The notes beneath the pieces are model-generated. The model saw only the letters and a program-made list of their open reading frames with translations, had not been told where the DNA came from and ran no database searches. This document shows positions 11,764 through 60,699 of a stretch of DNA of 64,000 bases, piece by piece (position 1 is the first letter of the stretch; each line of letters starts with the position of its first letter). The stretch covers positions 96,001 to 160,000 of IMG/VR virus record IMGVR_UViG_3300031992_000005. One strand, 5' to 3'. A program made the translations under genes and the position numbers. Source of the stretch: a virus.

Positions 11764-14097
11764 TTATTGTTCAACTATAGTCCAACCATATTTTCCTAAA
11801 TAATAATTTCCCGTTCCCATCCAAGTGTCGTAGCCTGTAGAACCAGCTGGAACTGTTAAAGTACCATTGGACTTAATATAATAAAAGGTACTAGAACTTA
11901 TACTTGGGGCTGTAGTTGCAAGAGAAGTAATATTAACTAGATGAGTACAGTATTCGAATGCGTGGTTACCAATACTAGTCACTGAATTACCTATTGTAAC
12001 AGAAGTTAAAGAACTACAATAAACAAATGCATTAATTCCAATACTAGTAACTAAATCTGGAATTGTAATAGAGGTTAGAGAAGAACAACTTCGAAATGCA
12101 CCGGCACCAATACTAGTTACTGAATCTGGTATTATAACAGAAGTTAGAGAGGTACAACTTTCAAATGCAGCGCCACCAATACTAGTAACTGAATCTGGTA
12201 TTGTAACAGAAGTTAGAGAGGTACAAGTCCGAAATGTAAAATCACTAATACTAGTAACTGAACTAGGAATTGTAATAGATGTTAAAGAAGTACAATTATA
12301 AAATGCACTATTACCAATACTAGTAACTAAATTTGGAATTGTAATAGATGTTAAAGAAGTACAATTATAAAATGCACTACTACCAATCCTAGTAACTGAA
12401 TCTCCTATTATGATAGAAGTTAGAGAAGTACAGTTTTGAAACGCATAATTATCAATACTAGTAACTGAACTAGGAATTGTGATAGAAGTTAAAGAAGTAC
12501 AACCATTAAATGCACTATTACCAATACTAGTAACTGATTCTGGAATTGTGATAGAGGTTAAAGCAGAACAATCACTAAATGCACTACTTCCAATACTAGT
12601 AACTGAACTTGGAATTATAATAGAAGTTAAGGAAATACAACCAGCAAATGCATTATTATCAATACTAGTAACTGAATTTGGAATTATAGTGTTCTTACAA
12701 CCAGTAATTAATTTATTACTAGATTTTCCTATAATTGCGTTACAATCATTTCTAGAGTCATAATAAGAATTATTTGGATCAACTACTATTACTTCAATAC
12801 TACTGCATCCATAAAATGCATACTGACCAATATTAGTAACTGAACTAGGAATTGTGATAGAAGTTAAAGAAGTACAACCATTAAATGCACTATTACCAAT
12901 ACTAGTAACTGATTCTGGAATTGTGATAGAAGTTAGGGAAGTGCAGCTCTGAAATGCCTGACCACTAATACCAACAACCGAATCTGGAATTATTACATCT
13001 AAGTTTATACCTCTATAACGATAGACTATGTTATTTTTTATACATAACCCGTCAATCTCCAAATCTATTATAGTAGCTCCCCAATAACTGTACACTGTCT
13101 CATCAAGAGAGCTATTATTAACAAAATTATTAGATAAAAATAAGCAACCAGCAAATGCACCCTGACCAATACTAGTGACTGATTCTGGAATTATGATAGA
13201 AGTTAATCCAGTACATCCAGCAAATGCACCACTACCAAGACTAGTGATTGAATCTGGAATTGTAACGGAAGATAAAGAAAAACAATTATTAAATGCACCA
13301 TTACCCATACTAGTAATTGAATTACCTAGCGTAAGACTAGTTAGTTCATGACAGCCAGAAAATTCTTGTCCACCGATGGCAGGAACGGAATCTCCTATAA
13401 TTAATGTTTTTAATTTTCGACAAAAACTAGAACCATTAGAACTAAAAATACCTGATAATGGCGCTTGTGCATTATAATTAATATACTCTAAATTAATACA
13501 CCTAGCAAATGCACCACTAAGACTAGTAACTGATTCTGGTATTGTAATAGAAGTTAAAGAAGTACAACTACTAAATGCACCATAATTAACCTCAATTACT
13601 GATTCTGGTATTGTAATAGAAGTTAGAGAAGTACAATTCTGAAATGCACTATTATTAATTTTAGTAACACTACTTCCGATAACAAGATTAACCAGTTTAG
13701 GACAATTATTAAATGCACCATTAGTAATAGTTGTTACAGAATCTCCTATGATTGCTGTTACAAGTTCTGGAGAATTAGAAAAAGATGAATTACTAATACT
13801 AGTACACAATTTACCTATTTCAGCTTTAACACAATTACTATTATATTCACCCAGTCCGGATGCAGTTAACTCACCTTCGCCCTCTATTTCAATAACACTT
13901 CCATCTATTAAGGTTAATTTGCAGAATCCTTCATAAGGAGGTTCTTCGCTATCACCCCCCCCCCCTTGGCCGATTAGGTCTTCACTATTAAGTGATGGGA
14001 AGTAGTCACTCTTAGTCTTCTTTTTCACATTTGAATAAATATATTCACTTAGTGTATCCCCACCTAATTCATGAGAGAAACAATCATTTACATTCAT
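11764..14097 (-). CDS. BspA-type leucine-rich-repeat (LRR_5) protein, putative tail fibre/receptor-binding protein, class I N-terminal module
   Basis: About 25 repeats of the type SLTSITIPxSVTSIGxxAFxxCT. The N-terminal MNVNDCFSHELGGDTLSEYIYSNVKKKTKSDYFPSLNSEDLIGQGGGGDSEEP is shared with ORFs at 51953, 57309 and 59707. The C-terminal NGTLTVPAGSTGYDTWM..GWTIVEQ is shared with 51953. Confidence 0.8.
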   Translation of the reverse strand: MNVNDCFSHELGGDTLSEYIYSNVKKKTKSDYFPSLNSEDLIGQGGGGDSEEPPYEGFCKLTLIDGSVIEIEGEGELTASGLGEYNSNCVKAEIGKLCTSISNSSFSNSPELVTAIIGDSVTTITNGAFNNCPKLVNLVIGSSVTKINNSAFQNCTSLTSITIPESVIEVNYGAFSSCTSLTSITIPESVTSLSGAFARCINLEYINYNAQAPLSGIFSSNGSSFCRKLKTLIIGDSVPAIGGQEFSGCHELTSLTLGNSITSMGNGAFNNCFSLSSVTIPDSITSLGSGAFAGCTGLTSIIIPESVTSIGQGAFAGCLFLSNNFVNNSSLDETVYSYWGATIIDLEIDGLCIKNNIVYRYRGINLDVIIPDSVVGISGQAFQSCTSLTSITIPESVTSIGNSAFNGCTSLTSITIPSSVTNIGQYAFYGCSSIEVIVVDPNNSYYDSRNDCNAIIGKSSNKLITGCKNTIIPNSVTSIDNNAFAGCISLTSIIIPSSVTSIGSSAFSDCSALTSITIPESVTSIGNSAFNGCTSLTSITIPSSVTSIDNYAFQNCTSLTSIIIGDSVTRIGSSAFYNCTSLTSITIPNLVTSIGNSAFYNCTSLTSITIPSSVTSISDFTFRTCTSLTSVTIPDSVTSIGGAAFESCTSLTSVIIPDSVTSIGAGAFRSCSSLTSITIPDLVTSIGINAFVYCSSLTSVTIGNSVTSIGNHAFEYCTHLVNITSLATTAPSISSSTFYYIKSNGTLTVPAGSTGYDTWMGTGNYYLGKYGWTIVEQ

Positions 14098-14113
14098 AAT
14101 TTAAGTATTTTTT

Positions 14114-15472
14114 TTAATTCATTGTTACTTTTATCCAGCCTCCTGGTAATGAGTTCATCCAGGTATCATAGCCTCTAGCACCTTGCGGAACATATAATGT
14201 ACCGTTAGGACAGATGTCTTTAAATGGGTTAAAGCCACTTGGGAAAGTTGGTGCAATTGCTGGTTTTGCTACTATTTCACATAAGTTACTACAATAAACA
14301 AATGTATCTTGACCAATAGATGTAATACTACCAGGTATTATTATACGAGATAAACCTGCACATCCAAGAAATACACCATGATCAATAGTAGTCAGTGAAC
14401 TATATTCAGGTAAATTAATTTCAATTAGCCTGTAACAATGGGAAAATGCATAAGAACCAATACTACTTAGATTATCCCCTAAGACAACTTTTTTCAAACC
14501 ACCACAACCATCGAACTTATCACCGGTGATACTAGTGACACCTTTTAAGACTACTGTTTCCAATGTATTAATTGCTCTGAAAAATCCATATTCAATACTT
14601 GTCACGGAATCCCCTAAGATTAATGTCTCTAGAGTTCTATGATTACCAAAAGTTTCTGTACTGAAATTAACCTGTGCATCATAATTAATATACTTAATAT
14701 TTGCACAATTCTTAAACGCATTACTTCCAATACTAGTAACTGAATGTGGAACTGTTATGTTAGCTAGGTTTGTACATCCGTCAAATGCATTATCTCCAAT
14801 ACTAGCTACTCCATCCTCTATTACTACATCAGTTAAGCTAGTACAACCTTGAAAGGTGGAGCTATTAATATTAGTTAACTTACCAGGGATTTCTATACTA
14901 ATTAAGCTAGTGCAGCCATAAAATGCACTACTACCTAAGGTAGTTAGATTCTTAGGCAACCTCACATTAACTAAGCTATTACAATTATATAAAGCCTGAT
15001 CACCAATACTAGTAACGGTATTAGGTATTACCACCTTGGTTAAATTATTACATCCATATAATGCAAATTTACCTATAGAAGTTACACCATCAGGTATAAT
15101 TAATTCCACCAATGCACCACTAAAGAAAATTGGAGCTGTCCCGCCCAAAGTGCCACTTGGATTAGTCAATTCAAACCTAATTGTATGTATTCCTGTAGTA
15201 TTAAAGGTATAGGTTACTACTATAGGATTATCCCCCGTTTGAAGTACTCCATCAATTTCAGTAGCTTTAATCACATCAGGTCCAGTATAACCAGATGTTA
15301 TAACAGTAGGTGAAGTAGTACTAGTGACATTATACTTACCTATCATCCATGCACTAGGCTTATTATAATGTACCTCATTTTCTGCTTCACAGTATACTAC
15401 ATTAGGTCCTTGGATGCTATCTTTTTGTTCTTCATACTCGGTATGAGTATTAAATTTCTTTAAATATTTCAT
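14114..15472 (-). CDS. BspA-type LRR protein, putative tail fibre, class II N-terminal module
   Basis: LRR_5-type repeats are present (VTSIGxxAFxxCxxL). The start is set at MKYLKKFNTHTEYEEQKDSIQGPNVVYCE because it aligns with the N-terminus of ORF 55986 (KYFNLFDSHNDYISAKNNLKKPNISYCE). The ORF-track start 15571 would run into the upstream gene's end. Confidence 0.75.
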   Translation of the reverse strand: MKYLKKFNTHTEYEEQKDSIQGPNVVYCEAENEVHYNKPSAWMIGKYNVTSTTSPTVITSGYTGPDVIKATEIDGVLQTGDNPIVVTYTFNTTGIHTIRFELTNPSGTLGGTAPIFFSGALVELIIPDGVTSIGKFALYGCNNLTKVVIPNTVTSIGDQALYNCNSLVNVRLPKNLTTLGSSAFYGCTSLISIEIPGKLTNINSSTFQGCTSLTDVVIEDGVASIGDNAFDGCTNLANITVPHSVTSIGSNAFKNCANIKYINYDAQVNFSTETFGNHRTLETLILGDSVTSIEYGFFRAINTLETVVLKGVTSITGDKFDGCGGLKKVVLGDNLSSIGSYAFSHCYRLIEINLPEYSSLTTIDHGVFLGCAGLSRIIIPGSITSIGQDTFVYCSNLCEIVAKPAIAPTFPSGFNPFKDICPNGTLYVPQGARGYDTWMNSLPGGWIKVTMN

Positions 15473-23750: not shown

Positions 23751-23792
23751 GATTTCTTAAGTTTTAAAGTTGAACATAAAATTTAACTGTTT

Positions 23793-23828
23793 CTATATAT
23801 AAGGCATTTTTCCTCTTTTAGGAAGGAA
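23793..23828 (-). promoter_or_regulatory. Promoter-like motif, class B (minus strand)
   Basis: The reverse complement reads TTCCTTCCTAAAAGAGGAAAAATGCCTTATATATAG. It is preceded by terminator GGGCGGAATTTCCGCCC plus a T-run. Confidence 0.4.
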
Positions 23829-23858
23829 AAAATAAAGGGCGGAAATTCCGCCCACCTT

Positions 23859-23930
23859 TTAAAAATAGAAGATTTTCTGGAGAAAACCTGATATGATTGG
23901 CCAGATTACTTCGTCAAATACTCTAAACAT
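23859..23930 (-). CDS. Micro-ORF (23 aa, hydrophobic)
   Basis: MFRVFDEVIWPIISGFLQKIFYF. Its ATG lies 1 nt after the stop of the preceding micro-ORF. Confidence 0.25.
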   Translation of the reverse strand: MFRVFDEVIWPIISGFLQKIFYF

Positions 23931-23931
23931 A

Positions 23932-24081
23932 TTAATACAACGTTTTTTTTAAGTTAGACATAAATCTTTTAAAACCATAATCTTGTATAGCTCTCATCAA
24001 GTCATACGTCTGATCACCTATTGCTGTGCCATGATGTCCACATATATATGCAGATAATCCAGTTAAAATCTTCATAATCAT
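23932..24081 (-). CDS. Micro-ORF (49 aa)
   Basis: MIMKILTGLSAYICGHHGTAIGDQTYDLMRAIQDYGFKRFMSNLKKTLY. It has an ATGA-type overlap with the preceding micro-ORF. Confidence 0.3.
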   Translation of the reverse strand: MIMKILTGLSAYICGHHGTAIGDQTYDLMRAIQDYGFKRFMSNLKKTLY

Positions 24082-24221
24082 AATCCTCTGCTGTTTCTAA
24101 TTTTTTCATCAGCCTTTCTTCCAAAAGCTGAATCTAAATAATATCGATATAAAATTTCGGTACCAATCGCCGCTACTGCAGCTTCCATACCTACTACAAT
24201 AATTGTTGCTAAATAATACAT
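24078..24221 (-). CDS. Micro-ORF (47 aa, N-terminal TM helix)
   Basis: MYYLATIIVVGMEAAVAAIGTEILYRYYLDSAFGRKADEKIRNSRGL. It is the first cistron behind class B motif 24264-24293. Confidence 0.3.
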   Translation of the reverse strand: MYYLATIIVVGMEAAVAAIGTEILYRYYLDSAFGRKADEKIRNSRGL

Positions 24222-24263
24222 AATGTTGTTTATTTTTAAAATTGTTAGAAATTATTAATATTT

Positions 24264-24293
24264 ATATATATAAGGCATTAAAAGGACGAGCAA
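24264..24293 (-). promoter_or_regulatory. Promoter-like motif, class B (minus strand)
   Basis: The reverse complement reads TTGCTCGTCCTTTTAATGCCTTATATATAT, downstream of a hairpin plus T-run. Confidence 0.4.
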
Positions 24294-24346
24294 AAAAGAA
24301 AGGGAGGCAATCCCTGCTTCCTTTCTTTTGATGTGTTCAGATGAAC

Positions 24347-24733
24347 TTAACCCCTTTTCTTTCCGTGGGGTTGCTTACGATGATTCTTCCTATACTTAAG
24401 ACTTAATCCCAATCGGGTCTTGCGACCGAAGGTTTTGATCTCTTCCTCTGTCAAATCTTCATCCATGTGCTTTATCGTTGACATAAGACGCTTTCCCAGC
24501 ACTTCGACTGGGGTCTTGATGTCTACAAAGAATCTTGCGGTTGCCCTAATTGCACGGACAACTGCAAAGAATTTCTGTAAAAATGGGATTTTTGAATCCC
24601 TATCCCTTCTTTTCCAGACGAACTTCCACATCTGGATTAGTAAATTGACCCTTTCGATCAGGCCAACCAAAAAGTTACTCACTACGTATATGATCATAAT
24701 GACCGAATACACGAAGTTAAATTTCTTTTTCAT
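24347..24733 (-). CDS. Membrane protein (N-terminal TM helix, basic C-terminus)
   Basis: The TM segment is FVYSVIMIIYVVSNFLVGLI. It forms a monocistronic unit with class B motif 24774-24809. Confidence 0.65.
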   Translation of the reverse strand: MKKKFNFVYSVIMIIYVVSNFLVGLIERVNLLIQMWKFVWKRRDRDSKIPFLQKFFAVVRAIRATARFFVDIKTPVEVLGKRLMSTIKHMDEDLTEEEIKTFGRKTRLGLSLKYRKNHRKQPHGKKRG

Positions 24734-24773
24734 AATTTTTTGAAATTAAAAGTTAGACATTTTTTAATTAACT

Positions 24774-24809
24774 CTATATATAAGGCATTTTCCCTCTTTT
24801 GGGAAGGAA
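24774..24809 (-). promoter_or_regulatory. Promoter-like motif, class B (minus strand)
   Basis: The reverse complement reads TTCCTTCCCAAAAGAGGGAAAATGCCTTATATATAG, nearly identical to 23793-23828. It is preceded by terminator GGTGGGTAAAACCACC plus a T-run. Confidence 0.4.
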
Positions 24810-24839
24810 AAATAAAAGGTGGTTTTACCCACCTTCTTT

Positions 24840-26747: not shown

Positions 26748-26770
26748 CATATATAAGGAAAATAAAGGGA
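26748..26770 (-). promoter_or_regulatory. Promoter-like motif, class A variant (minus strand)
   Basis: The reverse complement reads TCCCTTTATTTTCCTTATATATG, 20 nt upstream of the cca ATG. Confidence 0.4.
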
Positions 26771-26941
26771 GGCATTTCGCTATTAGGAGAGTTGAGCCTA
26801 AGTATCTTCACCTCATACTCAGACCCAAACTCCTAATAATAGATAAGACTTTCCAGTCTCACCGACCAAGACCCCTCCATTAATGGGCCTTAAGCGAAAT
26901 CCTCATTAGTAAGGGGATAATGGGTAGTGAAGTGAGTTTTT

Positions 26942-49451: not shown

Positions 49452-50137
49452 TAAAACTGAGACTTAAGGCGAGAGATTTCTATAGTATAGAAAAAGCTCT
49501 TGGCCTAATACAAGCTAAGGAGTATAATGATGAAATTGAGTTTGAGGCTGAAATTCCAGATGATAAGAAAACTATGGAATTCCTAGTAACTTCTCCAGAG
49601 GTATTACATTGGGATTTTATTGAACAGCCTAAACCTAGGGAATATACTATTCCTAGTGGAGATGCTGTATCTGCCTCTGTACATGAACCTGGAGTAGATG
49701 AACCTAAGGTAGTATTTTCATATTCAGGTGGAGATGTACAAGGACAACTTGACCCAGAAGATCCAGAGAATGTGATTGGGCTGTTAATGGAAAAGTATGG
49801 TTCCGAGTACTTGACAGTGGCTAGTATTCTTAGGATAGTTCTTCAATTTAAGAAATTTTATACAAAAAGTCCTGCCCTGAGATTTACTTCAAATATTATC
49901 ACTTCTTATGTTATCAAGGTTGATGTTGAGGCTGAGTTTGAAGAATTCAGAAGTTCACATAAAGACTTAGTGGATAAGCTCATAGTACATCTTAGAAATG
50001 AATGTACGGGAGAACCAAATGCTTATTATGACTATCAGTATCTGATCAGAACATTGAAAAAGTTTTGGTTACTTGGGAAATTATCTAAGGAGAATGTTGA
50101 TGAACTCCTAACTAATATTTATGGAGTCTTAGAATGA
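49433..50137 (+). CDS. Hypothetical protein
   Basis: 234-aa ORF. Confidence 0.65.
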   Translation: MCSKRLVKLRLKARDFYSIEKALGLIQAKEYNDEIEFEAEIPDDKKTMEFLVTSPEVLHWDFIEQPKPREYTIPSGDAVSASVHEPGVDEPKVVFSYSGGDVQGQLDPEDPENVIGLLMEKYGSEYLTVASILRIVLQFKKFYTKSPALRFTSNIITSYVIKVDVEAEFEEFRSSHKDLVDKLIVHLRNECTGEPNAYYDYQYLIRTLKKFWLLGKLSKENVDELLTNIYGVLE

Positions 50138-50469
50138 TTACATTAACTCCTGGCATTAAGTCCTCTCTCTTATTAGCTAGAATCAAGAATATAATTTATT
50201 ATAGACTTGAAGTTGAGCCTAAAGATCCTGAGAGAATAAGATGTCAATATCAACCTGTCTTAAGAAAACTTAGGAAGGATATCTTGGATATCCTACCTGA
50301 GATAATGGATGATAAGGAAACTTATCAAATATTGGATGAAGTAGTCCAAACAATACCTCCTATGGTAAAAACTGAGAATTGCTTGGAAGTTATTCAAGAA
50401 CTATGTCAAGTGATAAGAAAAAAGAACGAAGAAAACAGAGACATGACAAACATGTCAAAGAAGAATTAA
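50134..50469 (+). CDS. Hypothetical protein
   Basis: ATGA overlap with the upstream gene. Confidence 0.65.
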   Translation: MITLTPGIKSSLLLARIKNIIYYRLEVEPKDPERIRCQYQPVLRKLRKDILDILPEIMDDKETYQILDEVVQTIPPMVKTENCLEVIQELCQVIRKKNEENRDMTNMSKKN

Positions 50470-50798
50470 CTTATAAACAGGAAGCATGGGAAGCTGGGAA
50501 ATTGATTATGGAAAATCATAACCAGAGTCAGTTTTCACCAACCTTTACTTCGAAGTTAACTGATAGATTATATTCCTATATCCTGGGGGAACGTAATTCC
50601 TGTAAGTCAGCAGAGGATTTTGTTGTGGGCTTCAGAAAATATAAAGCCGCTATACAAGAACTATTGATCTACTGGAATCCTACATGTAACAAAGGTAGTG
50701 AATATGATTATCTCAAGAGACTCCTGGAAGTATACTGGGATGAAGTTAGGGATAAACAAAATCCTATGGCCTTATTAGATTCTGCTTATGATCAATGA
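50379..50798 (+). CDS. Hypothetical protein (start uncertain)
   Basis: The ORF overlaps the previous gene by up to 91 nt. Internal ATGs at 50403 and 50505 are alternative starts. Confidence 0.55.
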   Translation: MLGSYSRTMSSDKKKERRKQRHDKHVKEELTYKQEAWEAGKLIMENHNQSQFSPTFTSKLTDRLYSYILGERNSCKSAEDFVVGFRKYKAAIQELLIYWNPTCNKGSEYDYLKRLLEVYWDEVRDKQNPMALLDSAYDQ

Positions 50799-51246
50799 TG
50801 AAAGATTAATCCGACTTGTTAGATCAAGAGGACATAAGAGCGATTGGCCAGAAGCAGTGTGGGATATGAAACAGAGAATTCTAGAACAACATCTAGGGTT
50901 TCCTGGACTTGGTGATCCACACCTATCTATCCTCGAATTCTCCAAAATACAAGAAGGAGATCTCTTTATCTGGGATCCTTATCTGGAGTCTAGTGAAAGA
51001 GGTGATGCTGCTCCCACTATGTATAAATTACTCCCAGGAAATATGGGGTATGTTGAGGGAATTGGCTGTGGATTAGATATGGATAGAGATCCATCCAGAA
51101 CTCTCATTCGGTGGGGTGATACTGTTAAACTCCCGGACATAGATCCTATGGAATTAGTAATGCGAGTTGACGTTAAACCCTCATTAATAACAGGAGGTCC
51201 TGGATATTACTATTTCTACAAAGCTTATAGAGATTGGAGATATTAA
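50788..51246 (+). CDS. Hypothetical protein
   Basis: 152-aa ORF. Confidence 0.65.
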   Translation: MINDERLIRLVRSRGHKSDWPEAVWDMKQRILEQHLGFPGLGDPHLSILEFSKIQEGDLFIWDPYLESSERGDAAPTMYKLLPGNMGYVEGIGCGLDMDRDPSRTLIRWGDTVKLPDIDPMELVMRVDVKPSLITGGPGYYYFYKAYRDWRY

Positions 51247-51264
51247 CTTAATAATTTTAAGATT

Positions 51265-51894
51265 ATGAAAAAGAATTTGTTTTTAGGTTTCTTGCTTGCG
51301 ATAGCTTGCATTATGACCACGGGCTGTTCCTCTTGTAAGTCCGAAAATAAGAATCAGGAGATTAGCGAAGTAAAAACATTGGAACTTGTACCTGAAAATG
51401 TTATCAGTGCAGACCGTGAAGTAATGTATTTCCGTACACCAAAGGGATCGGATCTTAGGTGGATGGAATCTACAGCTGTATCAACTGCTTTCCTTACAGA
51501 TGATAGCGCAGCTGATGCTACATTCATGGAAGTAACTAATAGTTTTCAGACAGTAACTTGGTATGAGACTAGTGGTGATTCAAAGGTTACTATCATTACT
51601 ACCAATACAATGACAACTGATTCCCTCGTAACTAGTGGCTTTTTCCTAGATGATGAACCACTTAATGAGAAGGAAATCGTCCTGACATTCGCAGAAGCAC
51701 GTGAAGCAGCTCTTAAGGCAAATTGTCCAAAGCCTCAGACTCGTATCTGCGTCCTACGTTGTCCAATTGGTCCATATGATGTAGAAGATGCATACTACAT
51801 CTTTGGTAATGGTGATGAAGATACACCTATGATCTATGTAAATTCTCGTACTGGCGAAGTACTTACTCAAGATCCATCTTATATTAAACCTTAA
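51265..51894 (+). CDS. Lipoprotein
   Basis: The signal peptide and lipobox read MKKNLFLGFLLAIACIMTTGCSSC. Confidence 0.75.
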   Translation: MKKNLFLGFLLAIACIMTTGCSSCKSENKNQEISEVKTLELVPENVISADREVMYFRTPKGSDLRWMESTAVSTAFLTDDSAADATFMEVTNSFQTVTWYETSGDSKVTIITTNTMTTDSLVTSGFFLDDEPLNEKEIVLTFAEAREAALKANCPKPQTRICVLRCPIGPYDVEDAYYIFGNGDEDTPMIYVNSRTGEVLTQDPSYIKP

Positions 51895-51952
51895 ATAGAA
51901 CTTTCCTAGAGTGATGAAAATTTCACTCTAGGATTTTATTTTTACTTAAATT

Positions 51953-53467
51953 ATGAATGTAAATGATAGTTTTTCCCATAAACTTGGGGGAGATACACTG
52001 AATGAGTATATTTATTCAAATGTGAAGAAGAAGGTGAAGGAGGATAAGTTTCCTGCTAAGAATAGTAGAGACCTAATTGGAGATGGTGTAGTAGATGAGG
52101 ATATGGGCGAAGCTATAGAGCCAATTGATCCTATTAGGTTTGTTGCAAAGGTTAACGTAACTGACACATCAAGTCCTACTAAACTGTTTAATAATCCAAG
52201 TAATCTGGCGGCAATCGAGATAGATGGTGTTGTGTATGAAGGTAATGATATATCTAGTAATCTTAATCATACCTTTGATAGTGTTGGAATACATACAGTG
52301 AAGTATACACTTAAAGATGGAATGACTACTATTAATGATGGCAGTTGTTTTCAATTTATAACTGCCTTAGTTAGTATAACAATACCAGAAAGTATTACTA
52401 GTATTGGTGGTGGTGCATTTAGTAGTTGTTATTCTTTATCTTCCGTTACAATTCCTGGTTCAGTTACTAGTATTGGTAGTGGTGCATTTGGTAGTTGTAC
52501 TTCCTTAACCTCTATTACAATCCCTGGTTCAGTTACTGAGATTGGTGGTAGTGCATTTAGTGGTTGTACTAATTTAACAAATGTAGTAGTAAGTGATTAT
52601 GAAGGTGGTAATACAACTATTACTAATGCTGCATTTTCAGGTTGTACTGGATTAGTTTCCCTGATTTTGGGAAATTCCGTGACAACTATTACTAATTCAG
52701 CATTTGCTAGTTGCGCTGGACTGGTTTCCTTGACATTGGAAAATTCCGTGACAACTATTAGTAATGGTGCATTTAATGGTTGTATTAGTTTAGCTAAAGT
52801 TAATATTCCCAATTCTGTTATTAATCTTAGTAATAGTCCATTTGCAGGTTGTATTCGACTGACTAGATTAACAATACCTAGTTCCGTTGTTCATTTAAAT
52901 AATATTGGAGGACATTTTAAGTTTAATGATATTAAATTTAGAACAATTAATCCGGATGCTGATTTTACCCGTGATGCTACAAATAAAGTAATCCTTGATA
53001 AGACGGGTACTATATTATTATGGGGATTCGAAGATACAGTAGCAATTCCGAATACAGTAACTAGTATTGGTCAGAGAGCATTTAGTGATTGTACTTCTCT
53101 AACTTCCATTACAATACCAGATTCAGTAACTAGTATTGGTGAGTATGCATTTCAGAAGTGTACCTCCCTAACTTCTATTACAATTCCTAGTTCAGTTACT
53201 AGTATTGGTGGTAGTGCATTTTATAATTGTACTTCCCTAACCTCTATTACTATTCCAGGTTCAGTTACTAGTATTGGTAGTCAAGCATTTTATAGTTGTA
53301 CTTCTCTAATTTCTATAACATCATTAGCGACAACTGCTCCGACGATTAGCTCTTATACTTTTTGGGAAATCAAATCTAATGGTACTCTAACAGTCCCTGC
53401 CGGTTCTACAGGTTACGATGCCTGGATGGAACAATTACCTAGTGGTTGGACTCTAGTTGAGCAATAA
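51953..53467 (+). CDS. BspA-type LRR protein, putative tail fibre, class I N-terminal module
   Basis: The N-terminus is MNVNDSFSHKLGGDTLNEYIYSNVKKKVKEDKFPAKNSRDLIG. LRR_5 repeats are present. The C-terminal ATTAPTISSYTFWEIKSNGTLTVPAGSTGYDAWM..GWTLVEQ is homologous to the C-terminus of 11764-14097. Confidence 0.8.
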   Translation: MNVNDSFSHKLGGDTLNEYIYSNVKKKVKEDKFPAKNSRDLIGDGVVDEDMGEAIEPIDPIRFVAKVNVTDTSSPTKLFNNPSNLAAIEIDGVVYEGNDISSNLNHTFDSVGIHTVKYTLKDGMTTINDGSCFQFITALVSITIPESITSIGGGAFSSCYSLSSVTIPGSVTSIGSGAFGSCTSLTSITIPGSVTEIGGSAFSGCTNLTNVVVSDYEGGNTTITNAAFSGCTGLVSLILGNSVTTITNSAFASCAGLVSLTLENSVTTISNGAFNGCISLAKVNIPNSVINLSNSPFAGCIRLTRLTIPSSVVHLNNIGGHFKFNDIKFRTINPDADFTRDATNKVILDKTGTILLWGFEDTVAIPNTVTSIGQRAFSDCTSLTSITIPDSVTSIGEYAFQKCTSLTSITIPSSVTSIGGSAFYNCTSLTSITIPGSVTSIGSQAFYSCTSLISITSLATTAPTISSYTFWEIKSNGTLTVPAGSTGYDAWMEQLPSGWTLVEQ

Positions 53468-53481
53468 TTTAATTTTAACAT

Positions 53482-54153
53482 ATGATAATTAAAAAGAGGC
53501 AGGTGGGTATAGATAGGATGATAACATTAAATCCCGTTCTTGGTTGTCCGATTGGCTGTCCTTATTGTTATGCCAGGAAGATGAATCAGAGATTTAAGTT
53601 TACGCCAGACTTTTCTATACCTACTAAGATGCCTAATGCCCTGAATAGGTTAAAGACTATTCATAACAAAGATATATTCATGACCTCCATGTCAGATTTC
53701 AGTTATTGGGATCCGGAGTGGAGAGAGCAAGTTTTTGAAGAAATGAAGAAAAATACTAGTAACCAATACTTATTCCTAACAAAGAACCCAAAAGGCTTAG
53801 CAGGTTTTGACTGCTCTACCTTCCCGAATGTTTGGATAGGCGTGACGGTTACTAGGAATATGGATTTACATAGATTAACTGAAATCCTAAGTTCAGTTAA
53901 GGCTAGACATTATTGGATTACTTTCGAGCCACTTCATGAAGATATTAACCCAATTCCCCTTAATGTAAAGAAGAGGTTTGATTGGATCGTAATTGGAGAT
54001 GAAACGGGTAATAGAGCGGGGAAGATTGTGGCAAAGGATAGTTGGATTTTGAACCTGGCCAATCAATTCCCTAATACACCTGTTTGTATGAAGGAAAGAC
54101 TACAAGATAGCCTTGGTGATGAGTGGAGAAACGAATATCCTAGCGAGTTTTAA
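53482..54153 (+). CDS. DUF5131 (phage Gp37/Gp68) family protein with CX3CX2C motif
   Basis: TLNPVLGCPIGCPYCYARKMNQRF matches the family N-terminal signature (WNP..GC...S.GC..CYA) as I recall it. Cys spacing is C-x3-C-x2-C. Confidence 0.65.
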   Translation: MIIKKRQVGIDRMITLNPVLGCPIGCPYCYARKMNQRFKFTPDFSIPTKMPNALNRLKTIHNKDIFMTSMSDFSYWDPEWREQVFEEMKKNTSNQYLFLTKNPKGLAGFDCSTFPNVWIGVTVTRNMDLHRLTEILSSVKARHYWITFEPLHEDINPIPLNVKKRFDWIVIGDETGNRAGKIVAKDSWILNLANQFPNTPVCMKERLQDSLGDEWRNEYPSEF

Positions 54154-54157
54154 GAAA

Positions 54158-54868
54158 ATGGTAATATTCAGAGAGCTTGATTTTAAAAAAGTATTAAGCT
54201 ATGTAAAACAGTATAAGTCAGTCCCTGTTTTTGCCTTTACTTACAAAGGAGGAGTGACTTCAACTGGTTTATGGATGGAAGGGAACTATACTCCAGATAT
54301 GAAGGAGTTTGTGAAAGGACTTTTGGAGAAATTTGATTATCAATTCTGTTATGGTTGGGTAAACGAAACTATATATAAGTTTTGTGATGTATATTCTTTG
54401 ATTGATCCAGAGAAAAGACAACCTGGAGATAAAGTGAAGTTATTGTTCCAGCCGACGGGGAGAGTTAAGCTTACGCCTCTTACTGAATTTAAACCAGAAC
54501 ATTTCTTATTTCACTGTACAAGCAAAGAAAATTTAAAGTCCATTCAGGATAATGGTTTAATACCTATGGCGAGAGATAGGGGATACAAATACCCACCTCT
54601 TGTGCATCTGTTAATTAAGCCGTACCACATGGTGAGTCTCTCTGGAAATAAATTGGTCGGTGTAAGTAATTGGAAAACAGACTTAATTTTATTTAAAGTT
54701 AATCCTAATAATTATAAGTTTATGCCGGATCCTGCTTTTGAGTGGGGGCTAATTACGAAAGATAGAATCTTACCAGAGGATATCGAATTAATTTCACCAA
54801 AAGAATATAAGTATTATTTTAATTATAATAACTACGATAATACTCTTTTGACAAAAGTTAGATTATAA
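54158..54868 (+). CDS. Hypothetical protein; C-terminal part weakly similar to the Tpt1/KptA NAD-binding (ADP-ribosyltransferase-fold) lobe
   Basis: FLFHCTSKENLKSIQDNGLIPMARDRGYKYPPLVHL compares with KptA [28 protein letters not shown]. The N-terminal RNA lobe motifs (RH.P, QGHS) are not evident. Confidence 0.6.
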   Translation: MVIFRELDFKKVLSYVKQYKSVPVFAFTYKGGVTSTGLWMEGNYTPDMKEFVKGLLEKFDYQFCYGWVNETIYKFCDVYSLIDPEKRQPGDKVKLLFQPTGRVKLTPLTEFKPEHFLFHCTSKENLKSIQDNGLIPMARDRGYKYPPLVHLLIKPYHMVSLSGNKLVGVSNWKTDLILFKVNPNNYKFMPDPAFEWGLITKDRILPEDIELISPKEYKYYFNYNNYDNTLLTKVRL

Positions 54869-55971
54869 TGAGTGATTTTAGGAGAAGAACAGTTATAGCG
54901 AAAAAGCCTTATGATGCTGAGATTGAGTATTTGGAGACTACTGGAACACAATGGATCGATACACTAATTGTCCCTACAGTAAACGAGAATACTGAAGTAA
55001 TTGCAATTGTTTGTCCAACAGCTACAGGTTCATACTATTTTGGTTCTAATTTTAACTTAAATGTTCAAGCATCGACGGAAGGATGGAGAGTAAATGGTTA
55101 TCAGACGGATCATAGTGTTTTGATAGATTCTTTTACAACAATTTCCCTTAAGCAAACTACTTCTGGACGTTATTATAATATAAATAATACAACAGAAGGG
55201 TATGGTAATAAACAAGCGGGTGCAAATAATTTTATAATAGGTGCTTTAGGAGGTGCTGTTGGACAATATAAATTTAAGGGGAAATTTAGAGGTGTTATAA
55301 TTAAAGAGAATGAAATCGTAGTTCGTGATTTAATTCCCGTTAGAATAGGTCAAGTTGGCTATATGTATGACAAAGTAAGTGGTCAACTATTCGGCAATAG
55401 TGGAACGGGGGATTTTGTGTTGGGAGAAGATATTGTAGAGATTGAATATCTTGAGACTACGGGAACTCAGCAGATTATGACGAATTTTGTAGTAGATAAT
55501 ACCATAGATATTGATACTTCTGTTATGTTCTTAGATTTATCCAAACAGTCGAGTATTTGTTTTTCGTTTAATGAAGAGAATAGAACTTGTTTTGGTGTAT
55601 TTAAAAGTGCATCTACTAATATTGGGTTTTACTTTGGTAATAGTAATGCAGTAAATCTATTTACTCCAACAGTTAATACTAAGTATAAATTTTCGACGAA
55701 TAAGAACATATTATATATAAATGATACACGTAAATCTACATTAACAGACAATACATTCGTTGGTTTTACTCCTTTGGGTTTATTGCAAAATAATATTCAA
55801 AATATACAAGCAAGTTTTAGGATGTATTATTTTAAAGCAACCTCCGATAATGGTAATTTAGATTTTAAACCAGTCCGCTTAGGCACCATTGGTTATATGT
55901 ACGATAAAGTTTCCCACCAACTTTTCGGCAATAGTGGCACAGGCAATTTCATTCTTGGTCCCGACTTATAA
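54868..55971 (+). CDS. Tail-fibre-like protein made of two tandem homologous domains
   Basis: Each half begins (A/V)EIEYLETTGTQ(W/Q)I. Each half ends P-V-R-(I/L)-G-x-(V/I)-GYMYDKVS-x-QLFGNSGTG-x-F-(V/I)-LG. Confidence 0.7.
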   Translation: MSDFRRRTVIAKKPYDAEIEYLETTGTQWIDTLIVPTVNENTEVIAIVCPTATGSYYFGSNFNLNVQASTEGWRVNGYQTDHSVLIDSFTTISLKQTTSGRYYNINNTTEGYGNKQAGANNFIIGALGGAVGQYKFKGKFRGVIIKENEIVVRDLIPVRIGQVGYMYDKVSGQLFGNSGTGDFVLGEDIVEIEYLETTGTQQIMTNFVVDNTIDIDTSVMFLDLSKQSSICFSFNEENRTCFGVFKSASTNIGFYFGNSNAVNLFTPTVNTKYKFSTNKNILYINDTRKSTLTDNTFVGFTPLGLLQNNIQNIQASFRMYYFKATSDNGNLDFKPVRLGTIGYMYDKVSHQLFGNSGTGNFILGPDL

Positions 55972-55985
55972 TCTTGATATAATAT

Positions 55986-57305
55986 ATGAATAGAGATAAA
56001 TATTTCAATCTTTTTGATTCGCACAATGATTATATTAGTGCGAAGAATAATTTAAAGAAGCCAAATATAAGTTATTGTGAGGATGTAGGTGTACTATACA
56101 ATCCTTGGACTTGGGAAGAGGAATATTTAACTACGGAGGCGCTTGAGAGCGGTACGATTTCTTTTGAGATAGGAAAGAATGTAACGGTTAATGACTTAGC
56201 TTCCGTTTCTTATTCCAAAGATTCTGGTGAAACATGGACTACCACAGAAAATACTAGGGGAAGAACAAATACTCTCACAATTTCAGTATCAGTTGTTGCT
56301 GGTGATAATGTAATATGGAAAGGTTCAGGGGATCGAGTATCAGTTGGAGAAGGAATTGGAAGTTATTCTAGGTTTGGAACAACTGGAAATATAAATGTAA
56401 AGGGAAATATAATGTCGCTTATTTATGGCGATGATTATAAGGGCCAGACCGACCTTAGTGGGAAGATTGATTGTTTTACTAAGCTTTTCACAAGTTCTAA
56501 AGTAGTTAGTGCTGAGAATTTATCCTTACCTGCCATGACATTGGAAGAGAATTGTTATAAGAAACTGTTTTCTTCCTGTGGTAGCTTAGTAACGGCACCT
56601 AAACTCCCGGCTACAACATTAGCAACTAACTGTTATAATAGTATATTTGATGGTTGTACTAGTTTAACGTCAGTACCAGAACTTCCTGCTACAACATTAG
56701 CAAGTGGCTGTTATAGTTACATGTTTAGCGATTGCTCCAGTCTTGTTGAAGCCCCAGAATTACCAGCCCTTACCTTAGCAGATAATTGTTATAATGGCAT
56801 GTTTAGTGGATGTTCTGGTCTTATAAAGGCGCCTAGACTTATTGCCAATGAATTAGAGATGGGCTGTTATAGTTCTATGTTCGCTGATTGTACCAGTTTA
56901 GTGGTAGCTCCTAAACTCCCAGCTACAGTAATGGAATGGGGATGCTATACGGAAATGTTCGTAGGCTGTACTAGTTTAGTAGAGGCCCCACAACTTCCAG
57001 CCATGACTTTGGAGGAAGATTGCTATGGCAGTATGTTCATGGATTGTACAAGCCTAGTTAAAGCTCCAGACCTACCTGCTACTGTATTGGCAAATTATTG
57101 CTATATGTCCATGTTCTTTGGATGTACTAGCCTAAATTACATTAAGGTAATGGCAACGAGTATTAATCGAGATGTGCACTTAGGCGAAGAATGGATGGGA
57201 GATGTTCCAGCAACAGGAACATTTGTGAGAAATAAAGATGCAACGTGGCCAATTCAACCTAATTATGGTATTGTGCCACGAGGATGGACCGTAATAAATG
57301 AATAA
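55986..57305 (+). CDS. LRR-like repeat protein, putative tail fibre, class II N-terminal module
   Basis: About 9 repeats of ~24 aa read LPATTLAxNCYxxMFxGCTSLVxAPx. The N-terminus is homologous to that of 14114-15472. Confidence 0.75.
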   Translation: MNRDKYFNLFDSHNDYISAKNNLKKPNISYCEDVGVLYNPWTWEEEYLTTEALESGTISFEIGKNVTVNDLASVSYSKDSGETWTTTENTRGRTNTLTISVSVVAGDNVIWKGSGDRVSVGEGIGSYSRFGTTGNINVKGNIMSLIYGDDYKGQTDLSGKIDCFTKLFTSSKVVSAENLSLPAMTLEENCYKKLFSSCGSLVTAPKLPATTLATNCYNSIFDGCTSLTSVPELPATTLASGCYSYMFSDCSSLVEAPELPALTLADNCYNGMFSGCSGLIKAPRLIANELEMGCYSSMFADCTSLVVAPKLPATVMEWGCYTEMFVGCTSLVEAPQLPAMTLEEDCYGSMFMDCTSLVKAPDLPATVLANYCYMSMFFGCTSLNYIKVMATSINRDVHLGEEWMGDVPATGTFVRNKDATWPIQPNYGIVPRGWTVINE

Positions 57306-57308
57306 AAT

Positions 57309-58484
57309 ATGAATGTAAATGATTGTTTCTCCCATGAATTAGGTGGAGATACTTTAAGTGAATATATCTATTCAAATGTGAAGAAAAGAACAAAAGGAGA
57401 TTACTTCCCAGCTAAAAATAGCGAAGACCTGATCGGAGAAGGGGGAGGGGGAGATAGTGAAGAACCCATAGAAACTGTACCTAATAATATGATTAGGTAT
57501 TATGCCCCTGAAATATTACCAGAAACAACAAGTAATAAAAATGTAGGAATTCACATTAATGCCTTCAATACTACTGTTATCTCACATACATTTGAAGATG
57601 GGGTTGGTATAGTAGAATTTGAAGGAGATGTAACAGATATTGGAGATAAGGCGTTTTATCAATGTGGAAATATAACAAAATTAGTCTTACCAAAAAGTAT
57701 AACTAGTATTGGGAATAGTTCTATAAGTGGCTGTCAAAAATTAATAAGTATTAATATTCCAAACGGTGTTACTAGTATTGGTGATGGTGCGTTTCATTAT
57801 TGTTGGAGACTGACTAAGATCATAATTCCAACTAGTGTTACTAGTATTGGTAGTAGTGCATTTAGTCAAGATTTTTTTTATGTAGGTAATTTCATTAATA
57901 ACAGTTCTCTTGATGCAGAAGCTAATAACTATTGGAAAGCTACTTTAGCGGATATTGAAATGAACGACGGTATATTAATGAAAAATAATGAAATTGTATT
58001 GTTTAGAGGTAATAATACGGATATTATAATACCTAGTGGTGTAACTAGTATTGGTGAGTATGCATTTAGTGGTGATTCGTATGGTGGTGGTGATCTTGTA
58101 AGCATAACAATACCAAACAGTGTTACAAATATAGCTGCTTCTGCATTTAATACTTGCAAAAGTTTGACTAGTATAACAATTCCTAATTCTGTAACTAGTA
58201 TTGGTTATAATGCATTCGGTGGTTGTAGAAACATGACAGCAGTAGTTATTGGAACTAGTGTAACTGATATGGGTGAAATGGTATTTTGTGATTGTAATAA
58301 TTTATCTAGTGTAACAGTATTAGCTACAACTCCACCCACACTTGGGTCATATCATGGTCAATACTCGAATTTTTCTAATACAAACGATTGCCCTATCTAT
58401 GTTCCAGCTGCCAGTGTAGATGCGTATAAATCTGCCCAAGGCTGGAGTACCTATGCTAGTAGAATTCAAGCAATTTCAGAATAA
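57309..58484 (+). CDS. BspA-type LRR protein, putative tail fibre, class I N-terminal module
   Basis: MNVNDCFSHELGGDTLSEYIYSNVKKRTKGDYFPAKNSEDLIGEGGGGDSEEP is nearly identical to the N-terminus of 11764-14097. LRR_5 repeats are present. Confidence 0.8.
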   Translation: MNVNDCFSHELGGDTLSEYIYSNVKKRTKGDYFPAKNSEDLIGEGGGGDSEEPIETVPNNMIRYYAPEILPETTSNKNVGIHINAFNTTVISHTFEDGVGIVEFEGDVTDIGDKAFYQCGNITKLVLPKSITSIGNSSISGCQKLISINIPNGVTSIGDGAFHYCWRLTKIIIPTSVTSIGSSAFSQDFFYVGNFINNSSLDAEANNYWKATLADIEMNDGILMKNNEIVLFRGNNTDIIIPSGVTSIGEYAFSGDSYGGGDLVSITIPNSVTNIAASAFNTCKSLTSITIPNSVTSIGYNAFGGCRNMTAVVIGTSVTDMGEMVFCDCNNLSSVTVLATTPPTLGSYHGQYSNFSNTNDCPIYVPAASVDAYKSAQGWSTYASRIQAISE

Positions 58485-58488
58485 TTAA

Positions 58489-59058
58489 ATGAAAATACGT
58501 TATATGAATTCCCAGATAGAGTTTCATGAAAAATATATGGATGATTTTTTAAATGCCGATGAAGAAGGCATGAAGATCGCCGTAATGGATCGAACAGAAG
58601 CTCTATATGGTGGAGATTGGACCATAGATAAAGAGTGGTGTGATGAGAATGGAGTACCGTATTCACAAGGTAAACTTATTCAAAATACTGGATGTATTAT
58701 TGCAGTGAAAGGAAACGTTCTTCTTGATATAAAAAAGAAGTTTACTGGTGGGGAGTGTCTTTGTGATATTTTCTCCAAGAAGCTTGTTCAGTATTTTAAA
58801 GACAGGGGCATGAATTCGGTAAGGCAAGATAATAATGATGTATTGGTGGATGACTTTAAGGTTGCTAGTGGTGCTGAGGTTACTTTACCTGGGGGATATC
58901 ATTATATAGCTTACCAGATTTCAATAAATCAGGACCTTGATATAATAAAACACGCTTGCTTAAAGCCAATGGTGAAAGTACCAAAAGCATTAAGTGAGTA
59001 TGGTATTACTACAGAGGAAATGGTTAAGTTTTGTGAAGATTATTGGTTAAATGTTTAA
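58489..59058 (+). CDS. Hypothetical protein, weak similarity to BPL/LplA/LipB catalytic fold
   Basis: RQDNNDVLVDDFKVASGA resembles LplA GRNDLxxxxxKxSGSA. NTGCIIAVKGNVLLDI is similar to GGGAVxHDxGNxxF. The functional call is tentative. Confidence 0.55.
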   Translation: MKIRYMNSQIEFHEKYMDDFLNADEEGMKIAVMDRTEALYGGDWTIDKEWCDENGVPYSQGKLIQNTGCIIAVKGNVLLDIKKKFTGGECLCDIFSKKLVQYFKDRGMNSVRQDNNDVLVDDFKVASGAEVTLPGGYHYIAYQISINQDLDIIKHACLKPMVKVPKALSEYGITTEEMVKFCEDYWLNV

Positions 59059-59701
59059 TTTTGATTATAAAGGTTATAATTTTAGGTGTGATATAGGAAC
59101 AATGACACCCAAACAATATGAAAGACTAATCGATTTATTGGAGGACTTTAAGCCAAGAAATATATGTGAAATGGGTAGTGGTGAGTCTACTAAGATTTTT
59201 GAGAATTATAAATCAAGGACTGGTGCATCACTTTACTCAATCGAACATGATAAATTTTATGCTAGGGGGAATGCAGTTGTGTTTCCCCTAGTAGAAAAAA
59301 TAAACTTTAAAATCGGGGGAATTGATTTTGGAGATTGTTCAATTTATCGTGGCTTTGAAGAATGGCTAGGGTTACAGGGTAAGTTTGATTTAGTCTTTTC
59401 AGATGGGCCAAATGATACGTTGCCATATAATTATAATAACTTAGTTTATTCTAGAATTCAGGTTGTCGATTTTCCTATTCTAGATAAATTAAGTGATAAG
59501 TCTATAGTGATGTATCATGATTGTCAGTTGACAGAAGCAAAAAATACCTTAGAAAAATTTGAAGACGAATTATTAAAACGAGGATTTGCATTTAGTAAGG
59601 AGGAGATTGTTGAGGATAATATGGAAGTTGTTAAATACAATGAGAACATATTAGGCTTTTGCCCTAATCTCTTAATCTATAAATGTAATCGTGAAAATTA
59701 A
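59051..59701 (+). CDS. Class I SAM-dependent methyltransferase-like protein
   Basis: NICEMGSGESTKIF is motif I (E/DxGxGxS). DLVFSDGP is the post-II/III block, as in Methyltransf_24-type enzymes. Confidence 0.55.
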   Translation: MFNFDYKGYNFRCDIGTMTPKQYERLIDLLEDFKPRNICEMGSGESTKIFENYKSRTGASLYSIEHDKFYARGNAVVFPLVEKINFKIGGIDFGDCSIYRGFEEWLGLQGKFDLVFSDGPNDTLPYNYNNLVYSRIQVVDFPILDKLSDKSIVMYHDCQLTEAKNTLEKFEDELLKRGFAFSKEEIVEDNMEVVKYNENILGFCPNLLIYKCNREN

Positions 59702-59706
59702 TAGCA

Positions 59707-60699
59707 ATGATTATAAACGATAATTTTACAAGTAATTCTTGTGGGAACAATGTTCTAACAGAATATTATTACGATAAAGTAAGGCGTCATCTTAAGGGTG
59801 ACTACTTTCCTCCAAAGAACAGCGAGGACTTAATTGGTTATGTCGCTGGTGAAGGGGAAGAAGGTGAAGGTGAAAATAATGGCCCACAATTATTAGATTA
59901 CCTCTTCACTGATGGAACTTTCGGTTCTGAGATTGGAGATAAGGTGCCAGTTGGTATATGTGTAGCCCCTGCCAGTCATTTTGCTGATGGTAAGGCTAGA
60001 TTTATGTCATTGAAAGAAATGTCGGCCAGTGATACAGCTGGAACCACTGAACATACTAGCCTAGGATGGGGAACTGCTAATACAGATGCTGGTTTGACTA
60101 AGTATTCATCTGTGGCAGTTGTTGACAGTGAAGGTGCACTTAAAGGTGTTAACCAGAATTATGGTTTTATTCCTTCCAAGAGAGCTGAATGGAGTTCTGC
60201 TTCACAGCCGGCAGCAAGACCAGTTGAAGGAGTATATTATGCAGGTAATATGGACCCTAATAATCCATCTCCTTATCCATTCTTGGCTGATGGTTCATTA
60301 AATCCCGATTATTCTGCTACAGAATTTGATGGTTCGCCAATTGTGAATATGCTGAGTGATGTCAATGGTGCTGCAAATACTACAACCTTGGTAGGTTTGG
60401 GCAGTGATTATGTAGCTGCCAATGCATGTCATAATTTCGCCCCAGGAGTACATGATGGAGAATGGTATCTCCCAGCAATAGGTGAGCTTGGATATATGAT
60501 AGCATTATACGATGACATTAATGCTAAGATTACAGCTGCTGGAGAAGGTAATGGAGTTGTAGTTGCTCCTAGTAACTTTTATTGGTCTTCTACTGGGGTT
60601 AGTGAGAGTGGTGCTTGCAATCTGCGTATGAATAACGGTTACGTGGGCAACCTCGATAAGACGGGTACGCCTTACGTTCGTGCCTTTTTAGCTCTATAA
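59707..60699 (+). CDS. Tail-fibre-like protein: class I N-terminal module plus DUF1566 (Lcl-like) C-terminal domain
   Basis: The N-terminal MIINDNFTSNSCGNNVLTEYYYDKVRRHLKGDYFPPKNSEDLIG is homologous to the class I module. The C-terminal GEWYLPAIGELGYM...FYWSSTGVSESGA...YVRAFLAL fits the DUF1566 pattern (W.LP...EL ... yWSS ... vR). Confidence 0.7.
   Translation: MIINDNFTSNSCGNNVLTEYYYDKVRRHLKGDYFPPKNSEDLIGYVAGEGEEGEGENNGPQLLDYLFTDGTFGSEIGDKVPVGICVAPASHFADGKARFMSLKEMSASDTAGTTEHTSLGWGTANTDAGLTKYSSVAVVDSEGALKGVNQNYGFIPSKRAEWSSASQPAARPVEGVYYAGNMDPNNPSPYPFLADGSLNPDYSATEFDGSPIVNMLSDVNGAANTTTLVGLGSDYVAANACHNFAPGVHDGEWYLPAIGELGYMIALYDDINAKITAAGEGNGVVVAPSNFYWSSTGVSESGACNLRMNNGYVGNLDKTGTPYVRAFLAL

Follow-up and report, generated by a model that had tools for sequence, protein, structure and literature searches.

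Some genes of one family in the viral DNA stretch analysed here carry a run of guanines whose length differs between closely related genomes and sets the reading frame in which the two parts of each gene are joined. The stretch, called the window, is 64,000 nucleotides (nt) long and represents positions 96,001 to 160,000 of the IMG/VR virus record IMGVR_UViG_3300031992_000005. The window is part of an element of about 350 kb, probably a jumbo phage; genes of the family are found on contigs of 107,732, 185,181 and 353,905 bp, and the gene content around them is phage-like. Four window genes (A, C, E and F) begin with the same N-terminal module (class I N-module), and two others (B and D) begin with a second one (class II N-module). 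The polyguanine (polyG) tract lies directly behind the class I N-module and upstream of the distal domain (the body). These results suggest that the family probably consists of polyG phase-variable genes (contingency loci), in which binding domains are exchanged as cassettes, and that its products may be displayed on the virion.

The tract, which had been overlooked in a sequence-only reading of the same DNA, is present in its uninterrupted form in gene A (11764-14097, minus strand). It is a run of eleven guanines (G11) at 13955-13965 on the minus strand (C11 on the plus strand), encodes GGGG, and directly follows codons 1-44, which encode the class I N-module (13966-14097, minus strand; MNVNDCFSHELGGDTLSEYIYSNVKKKTKSDYFPSLNSEDLIGQ). 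No other G or C run in the window exceeds 5 nt. Gene E (57309-58484, plus strand) contains an 11-nt tract at the same place and in frame (57441-57451, plus strand), which is interrupted by an adenine (G5AG5). Genes C and F have Gly/acidic linkers without a G run, and therefore could not switch in this way. The class II genes have no polyG switch. The window and the loci fetched from relatives (160 kb together) contain 16 runs of G or C that reach 7 nt or more, and each of them directly follows an N-module. GGG accounts for 8.9% of the Gly codons in 26 long open reading frames (ORFs) of the window. Three consecutive GGG codons, although GGG is rare, point to selection on the nucleotide run itself, and the run is apparently preserved as a DNA sequence. 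The exact E protein is present on 11 contigs (JGI, Logan and ENA) and the exact A protein on 2, and the G5AG5 tract of E seems to be a widespread, stabilised in-frame allele.

The tract was compared among relatives, which are metagenome contigs whose DNA was read at the junction of the N-module and the body. A word-indexed protein search mostly returned truncated ORFs and missed the full-length proteins of the window. An N-module profile search of a large protein collection returned solely short proteins of 46-94 amino acids (aa), all of which stop just behind the Gly run, and their tails are frameshifted readings of the sequence behind the run in the window genes. Alleles with the N-module and body in frame are termed ON and those out of frame OFF. 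Five lengths are represented at the locus that follows a DUF488 gene elsewhere in the genome (DUF488 locus, outside the window): the tract is G7 in three JGI samples (L014-L016), G10 in L001-L003 (ENA, Logan and JGI), G11 in L019, and G13 in two ENA samples (L017 and L018), and a length of G9 is inferred from a truncated protein ending in GGGRI and a stop. The G11 allele is ON and encodes one intact 439-aa ORF, and the other four are OFF. At the A locus, the tract is G11 in the window (ON) and G12 in L006 (OFF). At the E locus, it is G5AG5 in the window (ON) and an uninterrupted G10 in L004 (OFF). At the C locus, the window has no tract (ON) and L007 has G10 (OFF). This result indicates that the tract length differs between closely related genomes and sets the reading frame.

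A run length of 2 modulo 3 joins the N-module and the body in one frame in all readable cases but one. The exception is L009, in which G11 is in frame, yet the ORF ends after 94 aa. A length of 11 is observed intact, and a length of 8 or 14 is in frame by arithmetic. At other lengths, translation stops 2-15 codons past the run, which leaves an N-module ORF of about 50 aa and a body that is otherwise intact out of frame. In silico, an additional G yields one continuous ORF each in L001 (459 aa), L004 (437 aa) and L014 (358 aa), and removal of one G restores the frame of L006. Exact copies of C, D, E and F, and probably also A, are present on the 353,905-bp contig, together with a G10 out-of-frame copy at the DUF488 locus, and therefore one genome holds ON and OFF members together. 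A C orthologue in L008 (1160-1216, corresponding to 52075-52110 of the window) contains a 1-nt insertion outside any homopolymer (GATGAAGGATATGG as compared with GATGAGGATATGG), which cuts the ORF to 58 aa. The insertion represents either a genuine frameshift or a fault in the assembly.

The six ORFs are present as the sequence-only reading had described them, and at least five paralogues of the family, which would encode non-secreted binding proteins, are present in the element (the four class I genes of the window and the one after the DUF488 gene). In each protein, a constant N-module of 44 aa and a short Gly/acidic linker precede a variable distal domain, which is a D-type repeat domain, an Lcl_C-like domain or a BspA-type leucine-rich repeat (LRR) solenoid, the length of which varies. 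Gene A encodes 777 aa, in which the N-module and the G11 tract are followed by an acidic linker, a long BspA-type LRR and a C-terminal cap (11767-11931, minus strand; …ITSLATTAPSISS…GTLTVPAGSTGYDTWM…GWTIVEQ) that matches C at 53303-53464. Gene B (14114-15472, minus strand) is located directly upstream of A and encodes about 452 aa if its start is MKYLKKF (15472; the longest ORF extends to 15571), with a class II N-module (~15350-15472) and a BspA-type LRR. Gene C (51953-53467, plus strand; 504 aa) consists of the class I N-module (51953-52084), an acidic linker without a G tract, a medium LRR and the cap that is common to A. Gene D (55986-57305, plus strand; 439 aa) consists of a class II N-module (~55986-56114), a beta-rich region and LPATTLxxxCYxxMFxxCTSL repeats. 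Gene E (391 aa) has its N-module at 57309-57440, followed by the interrupted tract and a short LRR. In gene F (59707-60699, plus strand; 330 aa), a diverged class I N-module (59707-59841) and a tract-free Gly/Glu linker are followed by a distal domain that matches Lcl_C/DUF1566 weakly. The long, medium and short LRRs that had been assigned to A, C and E are readily detected with LRR_5 (Pfam PF13306; E-values of 9e-172, 2e-83 and 7e-50, respectively). The scores of A, B, C and E (562.6, 241.7, 277.1 and 168.6 bits) exceed the Pfam gathering score of 27.7, and D scores 25.3 bits, just under it. F gives no LRR_5 match in the Pfam scan, and the match on which its assignment to DUF1566 depends is sub-threshold, with 22.7 bits against the Pfam cutoff of 34.9 for Lcl_C/DUF1566. 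A sequence search of solved structures with F and D returned nothing beyond a generic LRR match and noise.

The class I N-module that is common to A, C, E and F is 44-45 aa long, with 21 of 53 alignment columns invariant, and the E, C and F copies are 91%, 66% and 47% identical to that of A, respectively. The second N-module is likewise confirmed in B and D (16 of 41 residues identical, pairwise E-value of 1e-8), as is the order of class II then class I, which occurs twice, from B to A on the minus strand with a 16-nt gap and from D to E on the plus strand with a 3-nt gap. The 5' ends of A and E are similar at the DNA level, but the identity is 83.5% over the first 158 nt instead of the 85-90% estimated previously. 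A direct DNA repeat (51947-52091 and 57303-57447) is 76% identical. The N-module codons of A and E differ at 13-17 synonymous and 4-5 non-synonymous positions, and the N-module is therefore held by selection on the protein, rather than by recent copying. The same synonymous differences rule out recent gene conversion between these two modules. To describe B-A and D-E as a duplicated two-gene cassette is an overstatement, since B and D are about 24% identical, A and E are about 41% identical, and the DNA similarity is limited to the N-module. The C-termini of A and C are similar as had been proposed, with 68% identity over about 100 aa, and a segment of this type recurs in B, E and the relatives. 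It looks like the usual end of the family rather than a special module. The N-module appears to be restricted to this lineage: it gives no match in IMG/VR, GTDB genomes or 50,697 phage records, one locus in JGI metagenomes, and 8 matches among 1.84 billion representative proteins.

The sequence-only reading proposed that conserved ends with variable middles and a modular architecture provide for cassette exchange, and comparison with the relatives bears this out. Homology at syntenic loci (88-98%) breaks off at the tract itself or within the few bases that precede it. Around the A locus, L006 is 88.5% identical to the window from 17748 to 13955, where both the tract and the similarity end, and it has a class I N-module fused to a D-type body. 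The C locus of L007 is 92% identical to the window up to 52074 (codon 41 of C) and continues into an A-type body. At the DUF488 locus, L001 and L014 are 97.9% identical over 2.1 kb up to the tract, have only generic repeat similarity beyond it, and regain an identity of 96.5% about 85 nt ahead of the stop codon. The exchanged unit at the DUF488 locus has the N-module and the tract as its 5' edge and the C-terminal cap as its 3' edge. The downstream resumption of homology is seen at this one locus, which is the one with downstream sequence. Because the conserved N-module, and at this locus also the cap, bounds segments that differ between relatives, the distal domains are exchanged between loci and genomes. 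The exchange would proceed by homologous recombination within the conserved ends.

Two further differences are seen in L004. Gene F is missing from it (4100-4140), a clean presence/absence difference, and L004 passes straight from the gene for a 216-aa protein to a small membrane-protein ORF (60713-60985 of the window). The D orthologue of L004 (295-1584) is 91% identical to D in its last 325 aa, and a PglD_N-like N-terminus takes the place of its first 104 aa, including the class II N-module. This junction represents either another mosaic junction or a chimeric scaffold.

In the proposed mechanism, polymerase slippage during replication of the phage DNA would alter the run length, and each tract would act as a reversible, heritable switch between the full-length fusion (ON) and a bare N-module peptide (OFF). 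In the window, A is ON and would be unstable owing to its G11 tract, and E is ON and would be stabilised by the G-to-A interruption. The phage population would be a mixture of ON and OFF combinations. In the weakest step of this mechanism, the N-module would dock the binders onto a common site of the virion, where switching and exchange would vary the binding of the particle. Display on the virion is suggested by the layout of the family and by the usual extracellular role of LRR and Lcl_C-like domains. A more elaborate version, which is tentative, is that the phage possesses a bank of at least five anchor-tagged binders, several of them with their own polyG switch, that each lineage displays a different combination of these binders with the junction as the swap edge, and that the free 44-aa anchor peptide of the OFF state may occupy or regulate the docking site.

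Several observations weigh against switching and display as proposed here. The tract lengths are taken from consensus contigs and represent the majority state only. Because the searches favoured short truncated ORFs, the ratio of ON to OFF alleles cannot be estimated from them. OFF states that are one base short outnumber those in the other OFF frame by about 7 to 2, which fits programmed slippage. In L005, numerous substitutions follow the G14 run (2673-2771), and several contigs end in the tract or within about 80 nt past it (L005 at 2673-2771, L007 at 5647-5729, P0051 and P0053). Evidently, assemblies break or reads degrade at polyG tracts. As regards display, no homology to tail fibres, spikes or baseplates is found in Pfam or PHROG: the Pfam matches are confined to LRR_5, LRR_8 and Lcl_C, and every family matched in PHROG lacks an assigned function. 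The family genes lie among replication, repair and metabolic genes instead of in a structural (tail) module, although this neighbourhood is weak evidence, as structural genes can be scattered in jumbo phages. An AlphaFold2 model of E from a 5-sequence alignment has a mean predicted local distance difference test score (pLDDT) of 62 with confident LRR segments, and gives no fold for the N-module (pLDDT of about 33 for residues 1-79).

The bias towards OFF states that are one base short can be explained in another way if a run one base short is the normal state, and transcriptional slippage or -1 frameshifting gives a fixed ratio of peptide to fusion, as modelled on the tail-assembly proteins G and GT of lambda. 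Consistent with such programmed recoding, the one-base-short states G7, G10 and G13 are the commonest and are unchanged across independent samples, and the downstream bodies stay intact. It is nevertheless distinctly unlikely, because in-frame alleles exist (G11, and G5AG5 on 11 contigs), because C, F and P0010 are in-frame paralogues without a tract, because OFF states in the other frame exist (G12, and G9 by inference), and because the tract length is not conserved, contrary to the requirement of a programmed site. The differences in tract length might also be homopolymer sequencing or assembly errors, or the out-of-frame genes might be pseudogenes, and the corrupted sequence of L005, the breakage of contigs at the tract, and the frameshift of L008 outside any run would agree with this. 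Sequencing error is unlikely, however, since identical G10, G7 and G13 alleles with clean flanks are each present in two or three independent datasets, and since the lengths span 7 to 13, well past one-base miscalls. Decay into pseudogenes is ruled out by the out-of-frame bodies, which are open for 312-412 codons (312 in L014) in a genome with a GC content of 33%. Artefact and decay taken together are very improbable.

Two other explanations concern the role of the proteins. According to the sequence-only reading, the proteins are tail fibres with a common baseplate anchor, encoded by an inverted, duplicated pair of genes, and repeats 43 kb apart could mediate inversion as well as cassette exchange. 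The common N-module with differing distal domains, the repeated order of class II then class I, and the cassette exchange seen in the relatives agree with this model, as does the inverted DNA repeat it postulated, which is present as 174 nt at 82% identity (13940-14113 and 57293-57466). The model is also favoured by in-frame TAG codons in a distant class II N-module gene without a G tract, the sole match of the class II search (L021, 2868-3160), since stop-codon recoding in phages tends to affect late genes. There are two such TAG codons, at sites occupied by sense codons in D and L006, and the contig continues into GC-rich unrelated sequence. TAG recoding in this relative is thus suggested by the sequence, and may be a weak hint of late expression. 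The model as a whole is unlikely, because B and D are so dissimilar and because neither fibre homology nor a structural neighbourhood is found in the scans; in addition, LRR solenoids are usually monomeric binders, not trimeric fibres. The 43-kb inversion in particular is not supported. The repeat is old, with many synonymous differences, and the longest exact run common to the A and E modules is 24 nt. No recombinase, resolvase or integrase family is found among the approximately 55 window ORFs scanned, a set that excludes small ORFs. A and E have the orientations of the window and about the same spacing on the 107,732-bp contig (sample ERZ27257202), the one further assembly examined. Comparison of the repeats likewise reveals no pair of the template/variable type expected of a diversity-generating retroelement, and no reverse transcriptase is found among the scanned ORFs, although no dedicated search for such an element was run. 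The other explanation retains the same switch and exchange, and places the proteins off the virion surface, either inside the infected cell or packaged and injected, where they would serve host takeover or anti-defence, or be recognised by defence, with the N-module as a tag for packaging or targeting. Against this, extracellular binding is typical of BspA-type LRR and Lcl_C-like domains, and several paralogues with one short N-module and swappable binding domains represent the usual layout of phage receptor-binding proteins. This explanation is a lesser possibility. In its favour, the genes are scattered among non-structural genes, and no signal peptide or cell-surface anchor is found in the family protein sequences. 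LRR_5 genes are present in 29 of 50,697 phage records, and that of one unrelated Lachnospiraceae phage is also located among replication genes. Furthermore, the T2/T4 contingency loci are reported to serve escape from host defence (PMC12633550). Phase-variable genes with exchanged binding domains, possibly displayed on the virion, remain the preferred explanation.

Sets of receptor-binding proteins with a conserved N-terminal anchor are known as the tailspikes of Ackermannviridae and the depolymerases of Klebsiella jumbo phages. The family resembles them in that paralogues have a common N-terminus, differ distally and have a mosaic boundary at the junction. It differs from them in that the N-module is as short as 44 aa and has no homologue detected outside the lineage, that the distal domains are LRR solenoids instead of beta-helix trimers, and that the genes, whose products are putative virion proteins, are dispersed among non-structural genes. 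It likewise resembles BspA-type LRR surface proteins, which A, B, C and E match far above the cutoff, but lacks the signal peptide and surface anchor, is phage-encoded and has a lineage-specific N-module. Invertible tail-fibre segments include the G segment of Mu with Gin, the C segment of P1 with Cin, and the shufflons of plasmids. These have a constant N-terminal part with alternative C-terminal parts, and inverted repeats at the junction, as seen here. In the window, however, no invertase is found among the scanned ORFs, the repeats are 43 kb apart, 83% identical and coding, the orientation is the same in a second assembly, and the switch would be a frameshift instead of an inversion. The Mu segment is also cited in PMC12823448.

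The closest likeness in mechanism is to the hypermutable polyG tracts in genes of Campylobacter Fletchervirus phages (Sorensen et al. 2021, Cell Rep 35:109214, PMID 34107245, as cited in PMC12823448 and PMC10877375). Long G runs lie within coding sequences in both cases, in several genes per genome here, changes in their length toggle the frame, and a phenotypically mixed phage population is expected. The tract of the present family differs in that it is always located at one point, between the common N-module and the swappable LRR domain, and in that it belongs to an uncultured element of about 350 kb in which the role of the proteins is putative. When E and the N-module were compared with the 50,697 phage records by tblastn, no Campylobacter phage was among the matches tallied or listed, a result that does not include a direct comparison with Fletchervirus proteins. 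The resemblance is probably one of mechanism, not ancestry. In T2 and T4, contingency loci undergo reversible slippage frameshifts at simple repeats, which Gomez, Barrick and Waters (bioRxiv 2025, PMC12633550) read as bet-hedging. The mechanism is the same and the proteins are unrelated. Unlike these loci, the tract described here is of a single type, a run of 7-14 guanines that occurs in one gene family only and goes along with domain exchange.

The genome has a GC content of 33%, at which stop codons are frequent. The neighbours of the family genes encode GroEL and DNA-ligase-like, ParB-like, RNA-ligase/phosphatase-like, SbcCD and 5'-3' exonuclease-like proteins, as well as a nucleotidyltransferase of the CCA-adding/poly(A) polymerase type, ClpP, a non-specific endonuclease and a DUF5131 radical-SAM protein. 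Topoisomerase II and HNH endonucleases are also encoded in the window, and genes for DUF488, RNase H and NrdD adjoin family members in the relatives. The nearest homologues of the window GroEL (28804-30438) in isolated phages are those of Bacteroides phages DAC16-23, with 40% identity. The element encodes a ClpP protease (39520-40221) in addition to its own GroEL, and the last 1.4 kb of the window (62561-64000) aligns to a stretch of L004 that contains an intein-interrupted NrdD gene with an HNH gene nearby. A gene content that includes GroEL, ClpP and NrdD with an intein is unusual, yet has precedents in jumbo phages. No tRNA genes are found in the window, and positions 50000-62000 give no match to phage records by megablast. 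The sample labels (STEW18 and PRJEB21624) may point to cow rumen.

Other repeats and motifs are present in the window. The region 38101-38375, which is intergenic, follows ORF 36601-38106 and lies about 2.2 kb downstream of the ParB-like gene (34916-35944), contains four copies of ATGCAACAAATGTTACAT followed by seven or eight tandem 19-nt units of ATGTTACAAATTCAAAAAT. It looks like an iteron array or a partition site. An intergenic motif, TCCC[CT]TTAAA.CCTTAT[AT][AT]ATG, occurs about ten times, mostly right behind a T-run, at 4842-7162 (plus strand), 26748-26759 (minus strand) and 26934-27059 (plus strand), with five or six copies about 100 nt apart at 6.6-7.2 kb, and a related motif, CTATATATAAGGCATT, is present at 23765-24819. 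The motif of the TCCC type may be a phage-specific promoter. A 148-nt direct repeat with 82% identity (476-623 and 2234-2381) flanks or overlaps the HNH endonuclease ORF 1071-2258. The ORF at 54868-55971 between C and D (367 aa) is an internal duplication, both halves of which start with YLETTGTQ and end with GYMYDKVSxQLFGNSGTGxFxLGxD, and it has no match in Pfam, PHROG or the phage records.

Phase variation by slippage at simple repeats is a classic bacterial strategy. Its use by phages is documented, in the sources cited above, for Campylobacter phages and, recently, for T-even phages only. An uncultured phage of about 350 kb, unrelated to these, now appears to use the same strategy, and many metagenomes supply natural ON and OFF alleles of its genes. 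Gene callers split genes of this kind into an ORF of 46-58 aa and an N-terminally truncated LRR ORF, or call none, and the family is therefore largely invisible in protein databases. The switch is located at a fixed architectural position of the whole gene family, which coincides with the edge of the exchanged cassettes. If the proteins decide what the particle binds, the phage would possess two layers of variation, a fast and reversible switching of individual genes and a slower exchange of their domains.

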